A program made the position numbers and the translations under genes. The notes under the pieces are model-generated. The model worked only from the letters and a program-made list of their open reading frames with translations, was not told where the DNA came from and searched no databases. From the sequence record SRR31156797_632: a DNA stretch of 57,618 bases; one strand, given 5' to 3'. Positions 15,468-24,935 of this stretch are shown piece by piece. Within the stretch, counting starts at the first letter, position 1. The number at the start of each line of letters is the position of its first letter.

Positions 15468-15911
15468 ATGAAAAACGCCTTCATTATATTATTGACCGCT
15501 TTCTTATCGTTCACAATGGTTAGTGAAAGTCAGGCTCAATGCAGAAAGTTTACAAAAAACACATGCGTACCAAAACTTGACCCTTTTATTTTTAATGGTC
15601 AGGTAAATAGTGCATTGCTTAACGAAGGAGATATTGCTGAATTGATGCTTACATTTTATGCTGATCAGGAATACCGCGTTTTAATTTGTGCCGAAGACCA
15701 GCTTGGCAGTGTTGGATTCAGATTAAAAGATACCAACGACAAGGTATTATTTGACAACAGAAACCATGACATGGCAGATTTCTGGGATTTTACCTCAAAC
15801 ACAACTCAGCAAATTATTGTTGAAATGGAGGTCCCCGAATCAGCTACCATGGATGAAAAACTCAAAAATGGATGTGTAGCCATATTAGTTGGTTTCAAGG
15901 AAGCAGAATAG
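15468..15911 (+). CDS. Hypothetical secreted beta-rich protein
   Basis: Signal peptide ending SQA-Q; four Cys in the mature part; co-oriented with the lipoprotein. Confidence 0.75.
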   Translation: MKNAFIILLTAFLSFTMVSESQAQCRKFTKNTCVPKLDPFIFNGQVNSALLNEGDIAELMLTFYADQEYRVLICAEDQLGSVGFRLKDTNDKVLFDNRNHDMADFWDFTSNTTQQIIVEMEVPESATMDEKLKNGCVAILVGFKEAE

Positions 15912-15933: not shown

Positions 15934-15968
15934 AGTGCCATTTTTTCTAGAAAATGGCACTTTTTTTT
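15934..15968 (+). terminator. Rho-independent terminator
   Basis: agtgccatttt-ttctag-aaaatggcact followed by a T run. Confidence 0.9.
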
Positions 15969-16034: not shown

Positions 16035-16137
16035 ATTTGAGTTATGAAGAAGAGTGGAGAGAACAGGCTCTGTGAAACTCTGGCAACCGGCGAAAGCAAG
16101 GTGCCAATACCTGCCCAAGAGGAATAATAACTTAAAT
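16035..16137 (+). promoter_or_regulatory. SAM-I (S-box) riboswitch aptamer
   Basis: P1 ATTTGAGTTAT/ATAACTTAAAT; P2 GAGT-GGAGAG...CTCT-GTGAA-ACTC with kink-turn; P3 TGGCAACC...GGTGCCA; pseudoknot CAGG (16064-67)/CCTG (16110-13); minimal P4; upstream of met genes. Confidence 0.93.
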
Positions 16138-16146
16138 CGAAAGGCA

Positions 16147-16248
16147 ATGAAAATTAAAAATTTCAATTTACCATCGCAGTTAAAATTACGTTACCAGGCA
16201 TTTACTCTTTGTACATCTTGCTGTAGCTGTATGCGAATGCATAGATAG
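16147..16248 (+). CDS. Putative Cys/Met-rich leader peptide (33 aa, MKIKNFNLPSQLKLRYQAFTLCTSCCSCMRMHR)
   Basis: ATG 9 nt after riboswitch P1; 4 Cys and 2 Met in the last 12 codons; precedes the sulfur amino-acid operon. Confidence 0.6.
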   Translation: MKIKNFNLPSQLKLRYQAFTLCTSCCSCMRMHR

Positions 16249-16266
16249 ATTCTTATCTTAATTCCA

Positions 16267-16294
16267 TCGGGTGCACTAACCCGAAATTCATTTT
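16267..16294 (+). terminator. Candidate attenuator hairpin
   Basis: tcgggt-gcacta-acccga stem 18 nt after the leader stop, followed by an imperfect U-rich tail (aattcatttt). Confidence 0.45.
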
Positions 16295-16321
16295 CACTAA
16301 TTCATTTTTTAAGTATAAACT

Positions 16322-17473
16322 ATGATCAATCTTGTAGTTAATAAGATTGGCGGATCAATTTTAAAATCCCCCAGTCAATTAAATAAAACTGTTTCAATAA
16401 TCTTAGCTAGTCAATCAGTATCAATTTTTGTGGTTTCAGCTCTTTATGGAGTAACGGATCAACTCATCAATGCAACAAAACGAAAGTGCTATAAAAAACA
16501 CTTGCAAAGCATTAAAAACACGCATCTAAAATGGCTTACTGACTCAAGTTCAACAAAAAACTTAAAGGAAGCAATTATTAGCCTGCAGCGAATTTCTAAA
16601 AATCTGGAAACTGATTTGCAGTACTTCAAAACAAACCAAAACCCACACATATATGCACGAATTGTAAGTGCAGGAGAGCGATTAGCTTCAGTTATTATTA
16701 AGTACTATGTTAATTGTAACGCAGAAATATTATTGCCGGAGAAAATAGGGCTGCAAACATCTAATAATGCATTTAAAAGTGAATATTTAACAAATGCATC
16801 ACTTAGTAAAAAACTCACTATCTCCTATAATCAAAAGTACATTATGCCCGGGTTTTATGGCATAAACGAATTTGACCAACATTGCCTCACCGGGAGAGGG
16901 GGATCAGATTATACAGCAGCATTTCTGGCGAAACTATTTTCAGCAGAAAAGCTCATTTTTTGGAAAGACTCAAATGGAATACAAACTGCTAATCCAGAAA
17001 TTGTAACTAATGCTGAAAATGTTGCAGACATTAATCTACATGTGCTAAACCAGATGTCCAAAGCGGGATCGAAAATTTTGCATCCCAAAGTAACATATAC
17101 ACTACATAATTTCAGCGGGCATATATCATTCAGAAATCCAGTATTTGGCGACCAAATTTTAACAAATATTCACACGCAAAAAAGCTCTTCAGGTAAAGCC
17201 ATTATCATTGATGCTCCATCAATGGAGAATAATAAAAAATGCACTATTTCAATCATTACGCGGAATAAAACAGCTGCGCTAATAGCTATTCAACAGCTAA
17301 AAAATATTTTCAGCGGGATACATATTCTTGATATATCAGAACAAATAGTATCATTTGAAACAAGAGAAAAAAATAGAGCACAAGTAATTAGAAATCTGCA
17401 CGACTCATTCCATCTCAAACGTTCGTTTTCATTGCAAAAAGAAACTATCTCGCAAAATCATCTAACCCTTTAA
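16322..17473 (+). CDS. Aspartate kinase (divergent, short C-terminal regulatory region)
   Basis: KIGGS, VVSALYGVTD, SAGERLAS, PGFYG, GRGGSDYTAA, WKD..GI.TANP, GSKILHP. Confidence 0.85.
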   Translation: MINLVVNKIGGSILKSPSQLNKTVSIILASQSVSIFVVSALYGVTDQLINATKRKCYKKHLQSIKNTHLKWLTDSSSTKNLKEAIISLQRISKNLETDLQYFKTNQNPHIYARIVSAGERLASVIIKYYVNCNAEILLPEKIGLQTSNNAFKSEYLTNASLSKKLTISYNQKYIMPGFYGINEFDQHCLTGRGGSDYTAAFLAKLFSAEKLIFWKDSNGIQTANPEIVTNAENVADINLHVLNQMSKAGSKILHPKVTYTLHNFSGHISFRNPVFGDQILTNIHTQKSSSGKAIIIDAPSMENNKKCTISIITRNKTAALIAIQQLKNIFSGIHILDISEQIVSFETREKNRAQVIRNLHDSFHLKRSFSLQKETISQNHLTL

Positions 17474-17599: not shown

Positions 17600-18862
17600 A
17601 TGAAATTTGAAACTAAACAAATACACGCTGGATTTCGCAATGATGTTCAAACAGGAGCTCGCGCAATCCCACTCTATCAAACAGCAGCATACCAATTTGA
17701 CAGCTCAGAGCATGCGCATAAACTATTCGGGTTAGAAGAGTCCGGTAATATTTATACAAGAATTGGGAACCCAACTACAGCAATTTTCGAAGAGCGCATC
17801 GCAGCTCTTGAAGAAGGAGTTGCCTCATTGGCAGTTTCTTCCGGACATGCAGCGCAATTAATCACTATTGCAACCATTGCAGCTCAGGGAGATAATATAA
17901 TAACATCGCCATTTCTTTATGGAGGAAGCCACAACCAGTTCAAAGTAACCTTTAAACATTTGGGCATTGAAGTTCGATTTGCTAAAGACCTGAAACCTGC
18001 ATCATTTAATCAACTCATTGATGATAAAACCAAAGCCATTTATACAGAATCAATTGGAAACCCATCATTCAGAGTACCTGATTTTCAGGGCTTAGCAAAT
18101 ATTGCCAAAGAAAATGATGTTCCATTGATTGTTGATAATACATTTGGTGCTGGTGGATATTTTTGCCAACCGTTTCAATATGGTGCCAACATTGTTTTAC
18201 ATTCTGCAACCAAATGGATTGGAGGCCATGGAAATAGTATGGGAGGGGTTATTGTGGATAACGGGCAATTTGACTGGAACAATGGCAGGTTTCAATTATT
18301 AAGTACTCCTTCGGAAGGTTACCACGGATTAATTTTCACAAAAGAATTTGGAAACCTGGCATTTATAGCAAGGGCAAGAGCAGAAATGCTTCGTGATTTA
18401 GGTCCTGTGCAAAGTCCATTCAATAGCTTTCTTTTATTACAAGGTCTGGAAACACTCTCTTTAAGGGCAAAAACGCAAGCAAACAATGCTCTTTCATTGG
18501 CAAAATGGTTAGAACTGAATCCAAATATTGAGTCAGTAAACTATCCAGGACTTGGCTCCCACCCAACCCATAGCGAAGCAAACAAATATCTAAAGAATGG
18601 ATATGGTTGTGTATTAAGCTTCAATGTAAAAGGGGATTTTAAGAAAGCTTCTGCAGTGATTGATAATTTCAAACTAGCAGCGCACATGGCTAATGTGGGC
18701 GACAATCGAACATTGGTTATACAACCGGCAGCAACTACTCATCAACAACTAAACACTGCCGAGCAGATCAAAGCAGGTATTTCACCAGCACAAATTAGAG
18801 TGTCAGTTGGTGCTGAACATATAGATGATATTATTGCAGATTTTGAACAGGCATTGCAATAA
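17600..18862 (+). CDS. metY: O-acetylhomoserine aminocarboxypropyltransferase (sulfhydrylase)
   Basis: IYTRIGNPT, VDNTF, PLP lysine HSATKWIGGHG, ANVGD, TTHQQL. Confidence 0.93.
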   Translation: MKFETKQIHAGFRNDVQTGARAIPLYQTAAYQFDSSEHAHKLFGLEESGNIYTRIGNPTTAIFEERIAALEEGVASLAVSSGHAAQLITIATIAAQGDNIITSPFLYGGSHNQFKVTFKHLGIEVRFAKDLKPASFNQLIDDKTKAIYTESIGNPSFRVPDFQGLANIAKENDVPLIVDNTFGAGGYFCQPFQYGANIVLHSATKWIGGHGNSMGGVIVDNGQFDWNNGRFQLLSTPSEGYHGLIFTKEFGNLAFIARARAEMLRDLGPVQSPFNSFLLLQGLETLSLRAKTQANNALSLAKWLELNPNIESVNYPGLGSHPTHSEANKYLKNGYGCVLSFNVKGDFKKASAVIDNFKLAAHMANVGDNRTLVIQPAATTHQQLNTAEQIKAGISPAQIRVSVGAEHIDDIIADFEQALQ

Positions 18863-18935: not shown

Positions 18936-19958
18936 ATGAAAATTATGAGTACCACAACAAAATCAACTACACTAAAAAAAGTAGTATTAGAAAATATCCA
19001 AACCGATGTAGGAACATTGGAGCGTATCCATATTGCTTACCAAACCTGGGGAAAACTAAATAAAGAAAAGGACAATGTCATCTGGATCAACCATGGACTA
19101 ACAGCTGATACAAATGCCAAAGAATGGTGGCCAAACATGATTGGTCCGGGCAAAGTATTTGACACGGATCTTTACTATGTAATCTGCCCGAATATACCCG
19201 GCTCATGTTACGGTTCAAGTGAACCACATGAGATAAAACTTAAAAGAAATAATAAGTATACAGTAAAGTTGGGGCCTAAAGAAATAGCAAGGATATTTCA
19301 TTTAATGGCAAGAAAGCTTGAATTCAAGCAAATCTATGGTCTTTCCGGAGCTTCAATAGGAGGATTTATTGCATTGGAGTGGGCAATTTTGGCAAAAAAA
19401 TATATTCGTAACCTACTTCTAATTGCCACCAGTTATTATGCATCACCATGGAACAAAGCCCTTAATGAAACACAACGAATGGTTTTGGATAATCAAAATG
19501 TGCAAGAAGGTCTGGCTGCAGCACGTGCGATTGCTTTACTTAGTTATCGTACACCGCAAAAATATAATCAAACTCAGCAAGGTTTTAACTCAGATAATAT
19601 TGCAAAGGCGGCCTCATACCAAAGATATCAAGGTGAAAAACTAGTAAAGAGGTTCTCTTTAGCATCTTATCAGTTTTTACTGGATTTCTTTGATTTACAC
19701 GATGTAAGCCAACATAAAAATGATTTAAGAGAAGTCTTATCAAATATTAAATCAAATACTTTAATAATCAGGATTTGTTCTGACCTACTTTTCCCACCTG
19801 AGGAACAACTTCACATGCACAAACTGATACCGGATAGTAAGTTATTTAATGTAAAATCTGATTATGGCCATGATGCATTTTTAGTTGAAACAAAAGAGAT
19901 ATCAAATGCCATTCAAACATTTTTAATTCAATCAAAATCATCAAACCATGACAAATAA
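18936..19958 (+). CDS. metX: Homoserine O-acyltransferase (MetX alpha/beta hydrolase family)
   Basis: HGLT, WWPNMIGPG, GSCYGS, nucleophile GASIGG, SDLLF, GHDAFL. Confidence 0.92.
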   Translation: MKIMSTTTKSTTLKKVVLENIQTDVGTLERIHIAYQTWGKLNKEKDNVIWINHGLTADTNAKEWWPNMIGPGKVFDTDLYYVICPNIPGSCYGSSEPHEIKLKRNNKYTVKLGPKEIARIFHLMARKLEFKQIYGLSGASIGGFIALEWAILAKKYIRNLLLIATSYYASPWNKALNETQRMVLDNQNVQEGLAAARAIALLSYRTPQKYNQTQQGFNSDNIAKAASYQRYQGEKLVKRFSLASYQFLLDFFDLHDVSQHKNDLREVLSNIKSNTLIIRICSDLLFPPEEQLHMHKLIPDSKLFNVKSDYGHDAFLVETKEISNAIQTFLIQSKSSNHDK

Positions 19959-21144
19959 ACAATTGAACATAGGAATTTTTGGCTTTGGTAATGTTGGGCA
20001 AGGACTTTACGAAGTATTGCAGAAATCACCATCTACCAAAGCATCAATCAAGAAAGTAGTCGTTAAGCAAAAAAACAAAGCAAGGAATATTGATAAGGAG
20101 TTGGTCTCATTCAATGCGGAAGATATTTTACAAAACTCAGAAATAAATACGGTAGCCGAATTAATTGACAATGCTGATGACGCACTTAAAATTGTAACCG
20201 ATGCGCTCAAAGCAGGAAAAAATGTTGTTTCAGGGAATAAAAAAATGATAGCCGAAAACTTATCAAATTTGCTTGAATTACAAGTCGAAACAGGTTCCAG
20301 TCTTTTATATGACGCATCAGCATGTGGAAGTATTCCTGTTATTCGCAACCTCGAGGAATATTACGATAATGATTTACTTAAAGGAATAACAGGCATTCTT
20401 AATGGGTCATCAAATTACATTTTAACGCAAATGCACCGACATAATGCATCGTACGACAATGCTTTAAAAGAAGCTCAGGAAAAAGGATTTGCAGAAAGTG
20501 ATCCAACTTTTGATGTGGATGGATATGATGCAATGTATAAGCTCATTATCCTGGCACTGCATGGATTTGGAACCATTGTGAAACCTATTGATATTTTCTT
20601 TACGGGTATATCAAATATTAAGGCTACCGATATTCAACTAGCGCGAGAAAAAGGTAAAAAAATAAAACTTATTGCCAGAGCATTTAAGGTGGAAGATGGA
20701 AAAATTGCCTTATTAGTTGCTCCTGCTTTTGTTGGAACAGAAAGCTACATTTATAACGTTGACGAAGAATTCAACGGTGTAATCATTGAGGGTGAAGCAT
20801 ATGATGAGCAACTCATGTTTGGTAAAGGTGCTGGCAGCCACCCTACCGGATCAGCGGTCTTATCAGACATTACGGCAATGAGTTACAATTATAAATATGA
20901 ATACAAAAAACGGAAGTTTTTCACACCCCCGGAACAAACCAATGATGTGAACATTAAGATTTATTTCAGGTATAATGACACCAGTGTTCCTGATTTATTA
21001 CCATTACAAAGCATTGAAGAACAATATGCAGGTCCTGAATATCAATTCACGATAGGCACCGTAAAGCTATCTGATTTATTGAAAACTAAAGATATATTGC
21101 GTAAATTTGAGGTCTTTACTGCACTTCACCATTATAAGAGCTAG
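19948..21144 (+). CDS. hom: Homoserine dehydrogenase
   Basis: GFGNVGQG, SGNKK, GSIPVI, GILNGSSNYIL, AQEKGFAESDP, GKGAG. Confidence 0.95.
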   Translation: MTNKQLNIGIFGFGNVGQGLYEVLQKSPSTKASIKKVVVKQKNKARNIDKELVSFNAEDILQNSEINTVAELIDNADDALKIVTDALKAGKNVVSGNKKMIAENLSNLLELQVETGSSLLYDASACGSIPVIRNLEEYYDNDLLKGITGILNGSSNYILTQMHRHNASYDNALKEAQEKGFAESDPTFDVDGYDAMYKLIILALHGFGTIVKPIDIFFTGISNIKATDIQLAREKGKKIKLIARAFKVEDGKIALLVAPAFVGTESYIYNVDEEFNGVIIEGEAYDEQLMFGKGAGSHPTGSAVLSDITAMSYNYKYEYKKRKFFTPPEQTNDVNIKIYFRYNDTSVPDLLPLQSIEEQYAGPEYQFTIGTVKLSDLLKTKDILRKFEVFTALHHYKS

Positions 21145-21278: not shown

Positions 21279-24200
21279 ATGGCAAACAAAGCAGACATTT
21301 TCAAAGCCGTGCAAGAGCGTATTCTTGTGCTCGATGGTGCCATGGGGACCATGCTCCAGGCCTACAAGTTCGAAGAGGAAGACTATCATCATGAATCAAT
21401 TCCCGAAAGTGGAGAAAGCTATAAGGGAAATAATGAGTTATTGAATATCTCCCACCCTGAAGCTGTCCATGAAATTCATAGAAAGTATCTGGAAGCAGGA
21501 GCAGATATATTGGAAACCAATACATTTAATGGAAATGCTATTTCTCAAGCCGACTATGGTTTAGAAGATATCGTTTATGAGCTAAATTACCAGGGAGCAA
21601 TACTGGCACGTAAAGCTGCTGATGAATTCAGCACACCTGAAAGACCTCGTTTTGTGGCTGGCTCTATGGGACCAACAAACCAAACAGCTTCATTATCGCC
21701 GGATGTAAGCAACCCTGGATTTCGAAAGGTCAATTTCGATCAGCTTGTTGCAGCTTACAAAACCCAAGCGGAAGCATTGATTGATGGCGGTGTGGATGCA
21801 CTCCTTATCGAGACTATTTTTGATACTTTAAATGCCAAAGCAGCCCTATTTGCTATAGAGGAAGTCAATGAATCAAAAGGTACGAGTATCCCAATAATGG
21901 TAAGCGGTACAATCACTGATGCCAGCGGTCGGACATTGAGCGGACAGACTTTGGGAGCTTTCTACACATCAATGAAACACGGCAACATACTCTCATTTGG
22001 ATTAAACTGTGCTTTAGGTGCTGAACAATTAACCCCATACATTGAGGAACTTTCAAACATGGCCTCATGTTACACCAGTGCTCATCCAAATGCAGGATTG
22101 CCTAACGAGCTTGGCGAATACGATCAATCAGCTCGTGAAATGGCCGACTTAATTGAAAGCTTCCTACAAAAGGGTTTTGTAAATATCATTGGAGGTTGCT
22201 GCGGAACGAGACCTGATCATGTGAAAGCTATTGCTGAAGTAGCGGCGAAATATTCACCTCGCAAAATTCCTGAGTATAAGCCAGCCACTAAATTCAGTGG
22301 TTTAGAAATATTGGAAATTACTCCGGAAACAAACTTCGTAAACATTGGTGAACGCACCAATGTAGCCGGTTCTAAAAAGTTTGCCAGACTAATTCGTGAA
22401 GAAAAATACGACGAAGCATTGGATGTAGCTCGCAATCAGGTTGATGGTGGCGCTCAGATTATCGATGTTTGTATGGATGATGCCATGCTGGATGATGAAA
22501 AAGCTATGGTTAAATTCCTGAATCTGATTGCCTCAGAACCCGATATTTCTAAGGTGCCGATCATGATTGATTCATCACGTTGGAATGTAATAGAAGCAGG
22601 ATTGAAGTGCGTACAAGGTAAATCTATCGTAAACTCCATTAGTTTAAAAGATGGTGAAGAAGAATTCATTAAAAGAGCAAAAACCATTAAACGTTATGGT
22701 GCGGCCACTGTAGTAATGCTTTTCGATGAAACCGGACAAGCAGATGTTTTCAAACGGAAAATAGAAATTGCTGAACGCTCTTACAAAATATTGACAGAAA
22801 AAGCAGGTTTTCCGCCTGAAGATATCATTTTCGACCCTAACGTGTTGGCTATTGGTACAGGTATGTCAGAGCATAACGGCTATGCAGTAGATTTCATAAA
22901 AACCTGTACATGGATCACTGAAAACCTGCCACACGCTAAGATCAGCGGAGGAATCAGTAACCTATCATTCTCATTCAGAGGAAATAACACAGTACGTGAG
23001 GCTATTCATGCGGTCTTTCTCTACCATGCAATTAAAGCGGGCCTGACGATGGGTATTGTAAACCCTTCTCTACTTCAGGTTTACACCGATATTGAGCCGG
23101 ATTTATTGAAACTCACTGAAGATTTAGTATTAAATAGAAGGAAAGATGCCACTGAGCGACTTATGATTTTTGCTGAAAATGTAAAAGAAAGTAAAGAAAC
23201 TGAAGCTCAAAAAGAGGCATGGCGTGAAAAAGAGCTGGATGAAAGATTAGAATACTCGCTTTTAAAAGGAATAACTGCCTATTTAGAAGAAGATCTGGCA
23301 GAAGCAATTACCAAATATGACCGTGCATTGGAGATTATTGAAGGTCCATTAATGAACGGAATGAATATCGTGGGTGATTTGTTTGGAGAAGGACGTATGT
23401 TCCTGCCTCAGGTTGTAAAAACAGCCCGCGTAATGAAACAAGCTGTTGAAATTCTTGAACCGACAGTTAAAGCACAGGAAACCTCCACAGGTGATATTCG
23501 CAGTAATGGTAAACTATTGCTGGCGACAGTAAAAGGAGATGTACATGACATCGGGAAAAACATTGTTGACGTAGTACTCTCTTGTAACAGTTACGAAGTA
23601 ATCGACATTGGTGTAATGGTTCCTGCAGAAAGGATTTTGCAAACGGCCATCGACGAAAAAGTAGATGTGATAGGATTGAGTGGATTAATCACCCCATCTT
23701 TAGATGAGATGGTAGACGTTGCCACTAAAATGGAAGAAGCCGGATTTAAAGTACCACTTTTAATTGGAGGTGCAACAACTTCGGAGCTTCATACAGCAGT
23801 TAAAATTGCACCAAATTATAGTCAGCCGGTAGTGCACGTTAAAGATGCTTCGCGCAGTGTGGGTGTTATGAAAAAATTACTTGGCGACAACAAAGAGGCT
23901 TATGCCAAAGAGGTAGAAGAACAATACGAAAACATTAAGCAAAAATATGCAGAGAAAAACACAACAAAGCTAATTGATCTGGCTGAAGCTCGCCAAAATG
24001 CACCAATAATTGAGTTTAATGAAACAAACGTATACAAGCCAAATCTAATTGGAATCAAAACCTATGAAAATGTGAGTATTGATATCCTTCGAGAATACAT
24101 AGATTGGACATTCTATTTTGGAGCCTGGGAAATGCGTGGACGCTATCCCGGAATTTTAGAAGACCCGGTTCATGGACCGGAAGCCAAGAAGCTATTCGAT

Positions 24201-24935
24201 GATACATTAAAAATGCTGGATAAAATTGCAGCAGATGGATCGCTTACTTGTAATGGGGTAGCAGGTTTCTGGCCGGCAGCCAAACAGGGTGATGACATTT
24301 TGGTATACGAGGATGAAAGCAGGGAAAAGGTACGATTGGTATTAAATCAACTCCGCAACCAGCAAGAAAGAGACGATGCTAATTTATGCCTATCTGACTT
24401 CATTGCTCCGGCTGACAGCGGAACTAATGACTATGTAGGTGCGTTTGCAGTAACCGGTGGTATTGGACTTGAAAAACTCGAGGCGCACTATCGCGAACAA
24501 CATGATGATTACCACGTAATTATGGTGAAAATCTTAGCTGATCGTTTGGCTGAAGCTTTTGCTGAATATTTGCATGAAGAAGTACGTAAAAAACTTTGGG
24601 GATATGCACCGAATGAAAATCTGGACCTGAAAGGAATGTTAAAAGAGCAATATCAGGGTATTCGTCCGGCAGCTGGTTATCCTGCCTGCCCAGACCATGA
24701 TGAAAAAGGTAAAATATTTGAGCTACTTGATGCTGAAAAAATAGGTATAACCCTTACAGAAAACATGGCCATGTATCCAAATGCGTCGGTAAGTGGACTA
24801 TATATGGCACATCCAGATTCGAAGTACTTTAACCTGGGCAAAATAAATGACTCCCAAATTGATGATTACGCAAAACGTAAAAATCAAACCAAAGAACAAG
24901 CGCTGAAATATTTGAAGCAAAATTATATCGGATAA
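21279..24935 (+). CDS. metH: Cobalamin-dependent methionine synthase
   Basis: [32 protein letters not shown]12-binding [19 protein letters not shown]; 1218 aa. Confidence 0.98.

Follow-up and report, generated by a model that had tools for sequence, protein, structure and literature searches.

Riboswitches and leader-peptide attenuators are textbook regulatory systems, and they are taught as alternatives. Here we describe a leader that appears to fuse both. It lies within SRR31156797_632, a 57,618-nucleotide (nt) stretch of DNA that we call the window. The leader consists of an S-adenosylmethionine (SAM) sensing aptamer of the SAM-I class, a short open reading frame (ORF) ending in methionine (Met) and cysteine (Cys) codons, and a spacer. 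A methionine-synthesis operon follows. Our reading is that the region is a composite leader, in which two sensors stand in series, the SAM aptamer and then the Met/Cys leader ORF, to control the operon. We hold this reading with fair, rather than high, confidence. The arrangement is no one-off. Met/Cys-tailed ORFs followed 21 of 53 SAM-I aptamers (~40%) sampled across a large order that includes Bacteroidales. Hence, the design is widespread in Bacteroidales-type bacteria, where it is unannotated, and joins two known kinds of regulator.

Several described systems share parts of this design. In function, the nearest analogue is a tandem SAM-I/T-box(Met) element located before metX and metY. This is predicted to be on only when SAM is low and the transfer RNA (tRNA) for methionine, tRNA-Met, is uncharged (PMC9481103). 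The two inputs and the target genes are the same as those proposed here. However, the tRNA sensor of the tandem is a T-box RNA, whereas that of the window would be a translated ORF. T-box RNA was absent from the window at Rfam gathering scores, and nothing relevant was found at positions 16120-16340 with E up to 1. The term 'leader peptide' is absent from the paper describing the tandem. The closest architectural analogue is the Salmonella mgtA leader. According to PMC12360218, an Mg2+-responsive RNA is here combined with a proline-codon upstream ORF (uORF), mgtL, that acts via Rho. Both leaders join a ligand-responsive RNA to a short ORF, and translation speed at special codons alters the result for mgtA, as we propose for the window. 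The ligand, codons and phylum differ. Furthermore, mgtL sits inside the sensing RNA, whereas the ORF in the window comes right after the aptamer.

Classical leader-peptide attenuators, as outlined in PMC8632094, have a short leader ORF, with end-product codons clustered near its end, upstream of a biosynthetic operon. All of this applies to the window. Conversely, the window ORF stands behind an aptamer that probably controls its initiation, its codons are for Met (and Cys), and it has no conserved hairpin set ending in an intrinsic terminator. Cys-codon leaders are also on record. The uORF uORFC-8-2 precedes cysS (PMC8632094), polycysteine leaderless short ORFs are reported for mycobacteria (bioRxiv 10.1101/834739) and Cys leader peptides have been predicted in Actinobacteria, those of Mycobacterium being presented without terminator hairpins (PMC1262725). 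In the mycobacterial and actinobacterial cases, as in the window, runs of sulfur-amino-acid codons lie near a stop, before sulfur genes, with no conserved terminator hairpin, and Rho has been proposed to act. Unlike the window ORF, the ORFs of these cases are described as leaderless, lack a riboswitch and use Cys codons only. Finally, tnaC and speFL work with Rho and hold the ribosome at the very end of a uORF adjoining an untranslated spacer (PMC12360218). Their stalling, as set out there, depends on an exit-tunnel ligand rather than codon supply, and involves no riboswitch.

An earlier prediction, made from the letters of the window, offered the architecture as one not known to be described. 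Our literature search, whose coverage left most subscription journals outside, returned no description of a Met-codon leader ORF placed behind a SAM-I aptamer, and none of a Bacteroidia methionine leader peptide. The specific combination is therefore new as far as that coverage extends, but related designs have been published, namely mgtL/mgtA (PMC12360218) and SAM-I/T-box(Met) (PMC9481103). If our reading is true, the window encodes a methionine-specific leader peptide, of which we found none described. It would also represent a natural two-input gate, responding to low SAM and uncharged tRNA-Met, that is built unlike the known tandem of SAM-I and T-box(Met).

We searched for aptamers using Rfam covariance models and assigned gene families using Pfam. 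The match between the aptamer and RF00162 scored 68.2 bits, against a gathering score of 44.4, and covered the full model, positions 1-108 (E = 8e-14). No other Rfam family exceeded its gathering score in the 57.6-kb window. On the strength of this match, the aptamer is an ordinary RF00162 member. Its location, in the 5' leader of methionine-synthesis genes (aspartokinase, metY, metX, hom and metH), is usual for SAM-I. The boundaries, 16039-16133, are close to the 16035-16137 first proposed. What follows is less usual. SAM-I platforms typically have a terminator/antiterminator, or sequester a start, right after the P1 helix. In the window, the leader ORF was found there instead. The aptamer was predicted to have no terminator next to it, and our scan detected no terminator-like site at 16134-16266.

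The 33-codon ORF foreseen at ATG 16147 is present. All four Cys codons and both internal Met codons (C22, C25, C26, C28, M29 and M31) fall in the last 12 codons, as claimed. For comparison, Cys and Met account for 0.70% and 2.36%, respectively, of the 15644 codons in 40 long window ORFs. The closest relatives that we detected belong to a 13-genome family, in which RF00162 occurs once in each of eight genomes (leaders L162, L164, L166-L170 and L175). Each of the eight leaders has an ORF, 33-39 codons long and beginning at +9 to +15 downstream of the aptamer, with an in-frame CGA-ATG core that is part of an R-M-R motif. Six of the eight ORFs are clear homologues of the window peptide, with the consensus ..LP[ST]..K.R.QAFT..[ST]C..CMRM... 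The remaining two, in L168 and L169, diverge over most of their length but keep the in-frame Arg(CGA)-Met-Arg core near the stop. Across the nine aligned leaders (the window and the eight from the family) CGAATG is in frame and invariant, and the next C is present in eight. A pattern search of 401 genomes of the order recovered the 39-codon ORF type in two further genomes outside the family (L178 and L179). One of the four matches, in G325, was false and lay inside a gene.

The ORF evolves like coding sequence. Differences at the first, second and third codon positions of a 25-codon core numbered 1, 1 and 7 for the window and L164, 6, 3 and 18 for the window and L175, and 3, 0 and 7 for L166 and L175. 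We also aligned two related metagenome contigs, X4 and X5, to the window. Among the differences listed for X4 (18 of 22), three are in the 102-nt ORF, and all are third-position and synonymous. By comparison, the 73-nt spacer has 14 substitutions and two insertions or deletions. Third positions account for 8 of the 10 ORF differences listed for X5, and the spacer of this contig is wholly replaced by unrelated sequence. Hence, the peptide is under purifying selection while the spacer is free to change. Judged from this coding-type evolution, the leader ORF is most likely translated. Among the sequencing runs listed as containing the stretch, none was of RNA.

We next consider the order as a whole. 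RF00162 was searched in 151 genomes, drawn evenly, and gave 54 matches in 47 genomes. One match, in G264, was already known and was left out; hence, 53 leaders were read. A short leader ORF was defined as having an ATG start no more than 30 nt after the aptamer and a length of 12-60 codons. Such an ORF was found in 33 of the 53 leaders. Starts lay +2 to +14 after the aptamer, with a median of +11. We defined the tail as the last 10 codons and took as background 745 ORFs of 15-45 codons from the same loci. At least two tail Met codons were found in 18 of the 33 leader ORFs but only 21 of the 745 background ORFs (2.8%; binomial p = 9e-20). Three further leader ORFs have one Met and three or four Cys codons in the tail, which brings the number of leaders with a Met/Cys tail to the 21 given above.

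Met makes up 56 of 330 tail codons (17%) and 13 of 649 codons in ORF bodies (2%; p = 5e-17). For Cys, the corresponding counts are 28 of 330 (8.5%) and 21 of 649 (3.2%), an enrichment of ~2.6-fold (p = 6e-4). The original prediction treated Cys and Met alike. Met is the common denominator, whereas Cys is not a shared rule. Otherwise, the prediction staked itself on a conserved ORF with biased composition in relatives, and this was borne out by the ORF in all eight family leaders, its coding-like evolution and the Met tails across the order, with the weaker signal for Cys. Of the ATG triplets in the last 30 nt, 56 share the frame of the ORF, and the two remaining frames have 3 and 7. An RNA motif indifferent to frame is thereby excluded.

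The tails have a grammar. Of 27 pairs of successive Met codons, 19 have one codon in between (M-x-M) and one pair has none. A pyrimidine comes after the tail AUG in 50 of 56 cases; 18 of the codons that follow Met are CGN and 10 are UGY. Where Arg precedes a tail Met, the codon is CGA in 7 of 11 instances in the order sample. In 11 of 18 ORFs, a single codon separates the last Met from the stop (M-x-M-x-stop). This tail pattern, the C or U that comes after AUG and the recurrence of CGA-AUG are all clues to how a stall might be tuned. Beyond the Met/Cys/Arg tail the order peptides, of 18-44 codons, have nothing in common. The genes behind the Met-tail leaders belong to the metY-type, aspartokinase, HcyBio, metH, metA and metX families. 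Operons that begin with HcyBio and have both SAM-I and a Met-tail ORF were seen at L204, L205 (both M-R-M-R) and L223 (C-M-C). The HcyBio identity was assigned by Pfam (PF01837) for L204, and by eye, from similar N-termini, for L205 and L223. A phylum-wide sample had a different character. Met-rich-tail ORFs were found in none of its 30 best-scoring SAM-I matches (L233-L262). These leaders have another strongly conserved platform, with an AUG-rich stretch directly 3' of P1 and a pyrimidine-rich box ~30 nt further on, and apparently belong to another, more GC-rich lineage.

We infer from sequence how the two sensors might cooperate by gating, stalling and codon sensing. Ribosomes of Bacteroidia do not use Shine-Dalgarno pairing, and initiation relies on low structure upstream of and around the start (PMC6847099). 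In Flavobacterium, the same source describes positions -20 to +20 as tending to lack pairing, with initiation favoured by A at -3, -6, -12 and -13. Since these bacteria need an accessible, A-rich stretch before the start codon, SAM binding, by closing P1, would hinder ribosome loading on the leader AUG. When charged tRNA-Met or tRNA-Cys is scarce, ribosomes that do load would slow or stall at the Met and Cys codons of the tail, by analogy with leader peptides. With a ribosome detained at the 3' end of the ORF, the aspartokinase-metY-metX-hom-metH operon would stay on. Conversely, if the leader is empty (high SAM), or the ribosome is quickly released (ample Met), expression would be cut off in the structured spacer. 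The geometry of the putative stall site, two to four codons from the stop and with the untranslated spacer next to it, fits Rho-type uORF systems such as tnaC and speFL.

There is indirect support for gating by SAM. In 4 of the 53 order leaders (L186, L195, L196 and L214) the main metH-like gene itself begins at +13 to +22 downstream of the aptamer, which leaves too little space for a terminator. This range overlaps the upper part of the range for leader ORF starts. The four loci apparently represent direct translational control of metH-like genes in Shine-Dalgarno-independent bacteria. If gating is true of leader ORFs, it would give riboswitches a route to control Shine-Dalgarno-blind ribosomes, by regulating access to a leader ORF rather than hiding a ribosome-binding site.

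The output step could take three forms. As candidates, we rank Rho-dependent termination, which a stalled ribosome would shield against, first, weak intrinsic termination second and opening of the first gene's start region third. The spacers are 64-375 nt long and, within the window's family, C-rich and G-poor. This composition is a hint of Rho, and the Mycobacterium Cys leader ORFs, which are likewise without terminator hairpins (PMC1262725), offer a parallel. The stretch that begins 12 nt ahead of the stop and extends to 60 nt beyond it is more stably folded than shuffled sequences, with a mean z of -1.54 across 32 leaders and -3.19 for the window.

A number of observations weigh against the two-sensor reading. 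First, it does not account for every leader. Neither a short ORF nor a main gene start was found in 16 of 53 order leaders, and 15 of the 33 short ORFs contain one tail Met codon or none. A canonical terminator right after the aptamer was detected by the scan in L180 and L184 and by eye in L183; L184 is counted among the 33, L180 and L183 among the 16. Second, P1 ends at the edge of the region that the 30S subunit needs. Its 3' strand was said to cover positions -10 to -20 relative to the ATG. The Rfam alignment places it at -21 to -14 (16126-16133), a small correction. We predicted minimum free energy (MFE) folds with P1 enforced or not, and with a ribosome masking the start, M29, M31, the stop or nothing. 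Enforcing P1 paired its own 3' strand and left predicted pairing from -13 to +16 unaltered. Hence, any effect of P1 on initiation, if real, would be steric or would concern a standby site.

Third, the sequence is more constrained than plain codon sensing needs. The whole peptide is conserved at the amino-acid level in the window's family, beyond its Met and Cys codons. Furthermore, the central Arg of M-R-M is encoded by CGA in all nine aligned leaders, while other Arg positions vary, and CGA provides only 14% of Arg codons in window genes. A slow CGA-AUG codon pair might be the reason for the fixed CGA.

Fourth, an intrinsic terminator controlled by the ribosome is unsupported. The GC-rich hairpin predicted downstream of the ORF is present, with six pairs, four of them G-C, followed by AATTCATTTT. 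Control was proposed to operate through read-through of this hairpin, and folding with and without a ribosome footprint was named as a check. All six pairs persisted under every ribosome mask. Neither the sequence nor the position of the hairpin is conserved in L162, L164, L166 or L170. In the comparison with X4 and X5, one contig has a compensatory change at the hairpin base, and two top pairs are broken. Strict sites, with a hairpin plus a U-run, occur in 8 of 32 Met-rich leaders, which exceeds the 0.04 expected per leader but is only a quarter of them. Since the hairpin is unconserved and insensitive to masking, and strict sites are few, this part of the original prediction is not supported. 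Pairing between the tail and downstream sequence was not significant for the window (z = +0.35) and modest on average (mean z = -0.84). A tail-to-downstream helix with one G-U to A-U change in L162, L164, L166 and L175 is not relied on here. Mutually exclusive, ribosome-dependent hairpins that end in an intrinsic terminator were not found in the window. Hence, we do not file the leader as a classical attenuator.

The absence of a conserved antiterminator/terminator set is also what one would see if the leader ORF were a mere expression platform for the riboswitch. SAM would then set ribosome loading, and translation would shield the transcript from Rho or open downstream structure, extending control of translation to the entire operon, with no tRNA sensing and some other cause for the composition of the tail. 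The leader start codon does sit where directly controlled main genes start, and riboswitch-controlled translation is coupled to Rho in E. coli, as PMC12360218 describes. This explanation nonetheless leaves unaccounted for the excess of Met in tails, the concentration of tail ATG triplets in one frame, the spacing of Met codons as M-x-M and their constant distance from the stop. In addition, all of the controlled genes make homocysteine or methionine, which fits the sensing of cognate codons. We consider a platform without tRNA sensing unlikely.

A different possibility is that the nascent chain, and not its codons, is the sensor. The peptide would act as an arrest peptide like TnaC or SpeFL, with R-M-R at the peptidyl-transferase centre causing a stall alone or in response to methionine, SAM or homocysteine in the exit tunnel. 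The constraint on the peptide, which spans its full length in the window's family (LP[ST]..K.R.QAFT..), and the constant CGA at the central Arg would then make sense. R-M-R is shaped like the Arg-Leu-Arg of drug-dependent stalling peptides described in PMC8632094, and a stall site near the stop is shared with tnaC and speFL as reported in PMC12360218. However, a shared arrest sequence is hard to reconcile with order peptides of such varied length that agree in their Met/Cys/Arg tails only. We regard an arrest peptide acting in place of codon sensing as decidedly unlikely. A broader scheme would combine the two. In this, the conserved chain ending Arg(CGA)-Met-Arg would be a programmed arrest peptide, with a sulfur metabolite in the tunnel, or else the CGA-AUG pair, adjusting the stall. 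The leader would thus integrate three signals, SAM being read by the RNA, Met-tRNA by the codons and a metabolite by the peptide, and leader ORFs would be a general route to operon-wide riboswitch control in Shine-Dalgarno-blind Bacteroidia. This extension of the two-sensor reading is speculative and, as a whole, improbable.

The ORF could alternatively encode a free functional micro-protein that is merely co-expressed with the operon, for example one that binds metal or sulfur through Cys residues. The four Cys of the window peptide are arranged C-x-x-C-C-x-C, and purifying selection acts along the whole peptide in the family. Against this, the N-terminal halves are unrelated, and Cys occurs once or twice, in L168 and L169 from the family and in L178 and L179 from outside, but all four retain the R-M-R core and its position. 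A profile of the leader peptide, searched against 1.84 billion representative proteins, had a single match, to an irrelevant repetitive protein of 1453 amino acids (aa). Since no annotated protein matched, gene callers miss these ORFs, and annotation pipelines overlook them. We find the micro-protein explanation highly improbable. Scarcely plausible, too, is an untranslated frame whose conservation stems from an enlarged RNA expression platform, with the ORF there by accident. The CGAATGC core is conserved at the nucleotide level, and several leaders contain small local hairpins formed by the Met-codon repeats, which are in part self-complementary. However, third-position and synonymous substitutions dominate, the frame is open from an ATG at +2 to +16 to the tail in 33 of 53 leaders with tail ATG triplets overwhelmingly in that frame, no consistently placed, conserved RNA partner of the core was found, and no Rfam family fits 16120-16340 (the best matches are chance, with E >= 0.17 and scores far under gathering).

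The features of the region are collected in Table 1. The small hairpin at 16243-16258 would melt under a terminating or stalled ribosome. No promoter was identified for the leader.

Table 1. Positions of the leader elements and neighbouring genes in the window, all on the + strand.
Feature	Position	Description
Intrinsic terminator	15934..15961 (+)	Canonical; 12-pair stem then T8; belongs to the upstream 147-aa gene; 5' limit of the leader transcription unit
SAM-I (S-box) riboswitch aptamer	16039..16133 (+)	Rfam RF00162; P1 3' strand ~16126-16133
A-rich linker	16134..16146 (+)	13 nt between P1 and leader ATG, so that P1 ends at -14; predicted mostly unpaired
Leader ORF	16147..16248 (+)	33 codons; ATG 16147; stop TAG 16246-16248; predicted translation MKIKNFNLPSQLKLRYQAFTLCTSCCSCMRMHR
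Met/Cys-rich tail	16210..16245 (+)	Codons 22-33; CTSCCSCMRMHR
CGAATGC core	16234..16240 (+)	Arg-CGA, Met and first base of next codon
Small predicted hairpin	16243..16258 (+)	6 pairs; 5' arm is last sense codon and stop; MFE fold
Spacer, leader ORF to first gene	16249..16321 (+)	73 nt; C 0.21, G 0.08; fast-evolving
Hairpin	16267..16284 (+)	6 pairs (4 G-C), then AATTCATTTT; T-rich run 16285-16310; weak terminator-like site
Aspartokinase-like gene	16322..17473 (+)	383 aa; Pfam AA_kinase only; without ACT domains
metY-type O-acetylhomoserine sulfhydrylase	17600..18862 (+)	Pfam Cys_Met_Meta_PP
metX-like homoserine O-acetyltransferase	18936..19958 (+)	Abhydrolase_1; alpha/beta hydrolase fold
Homoserine dehydrogenase (hom)	19948..21144 (+)	Pfam Homoserine_dh
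B12-dependent methionine synthase MetH	21279..24935 (+)	Five Pfam domains

Pfam assignments agree with the genes named in the original prediction, aspartokinase-metY-metX-hom, and add metH. The best named relatives of the window metY protein are in metagenome-assembled genomes of Salinivirgaceae. An aspartokinase without ACT domains is encoded by 5 of the 13 family genomes, and these proteins are 32-64% identical to that of the window. Eight proteins of similar ACT-less build (P0002-P0009) were among the matches listed from 5.8 billion proteins. A scan of genomes and metagenomes using an aspartokinase alignment returned distant kinases only (23-33% identity), and SAM-I was found at none of the 20 loci scanned out of 160. 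Feedback on the ACT-less aspartokinase may have shifted from the protein to the leader RNA. The kinase is absent from G414, the genome with leader L170, where a 375-nt spacer separates the leader ORF from metY. A 147-aa gene that matches no Pfam family lies upstream of the SAM leader both in the window (15468-15911) and in G414 (L170, positions 621-1064). Hence, local synteny is conserved.

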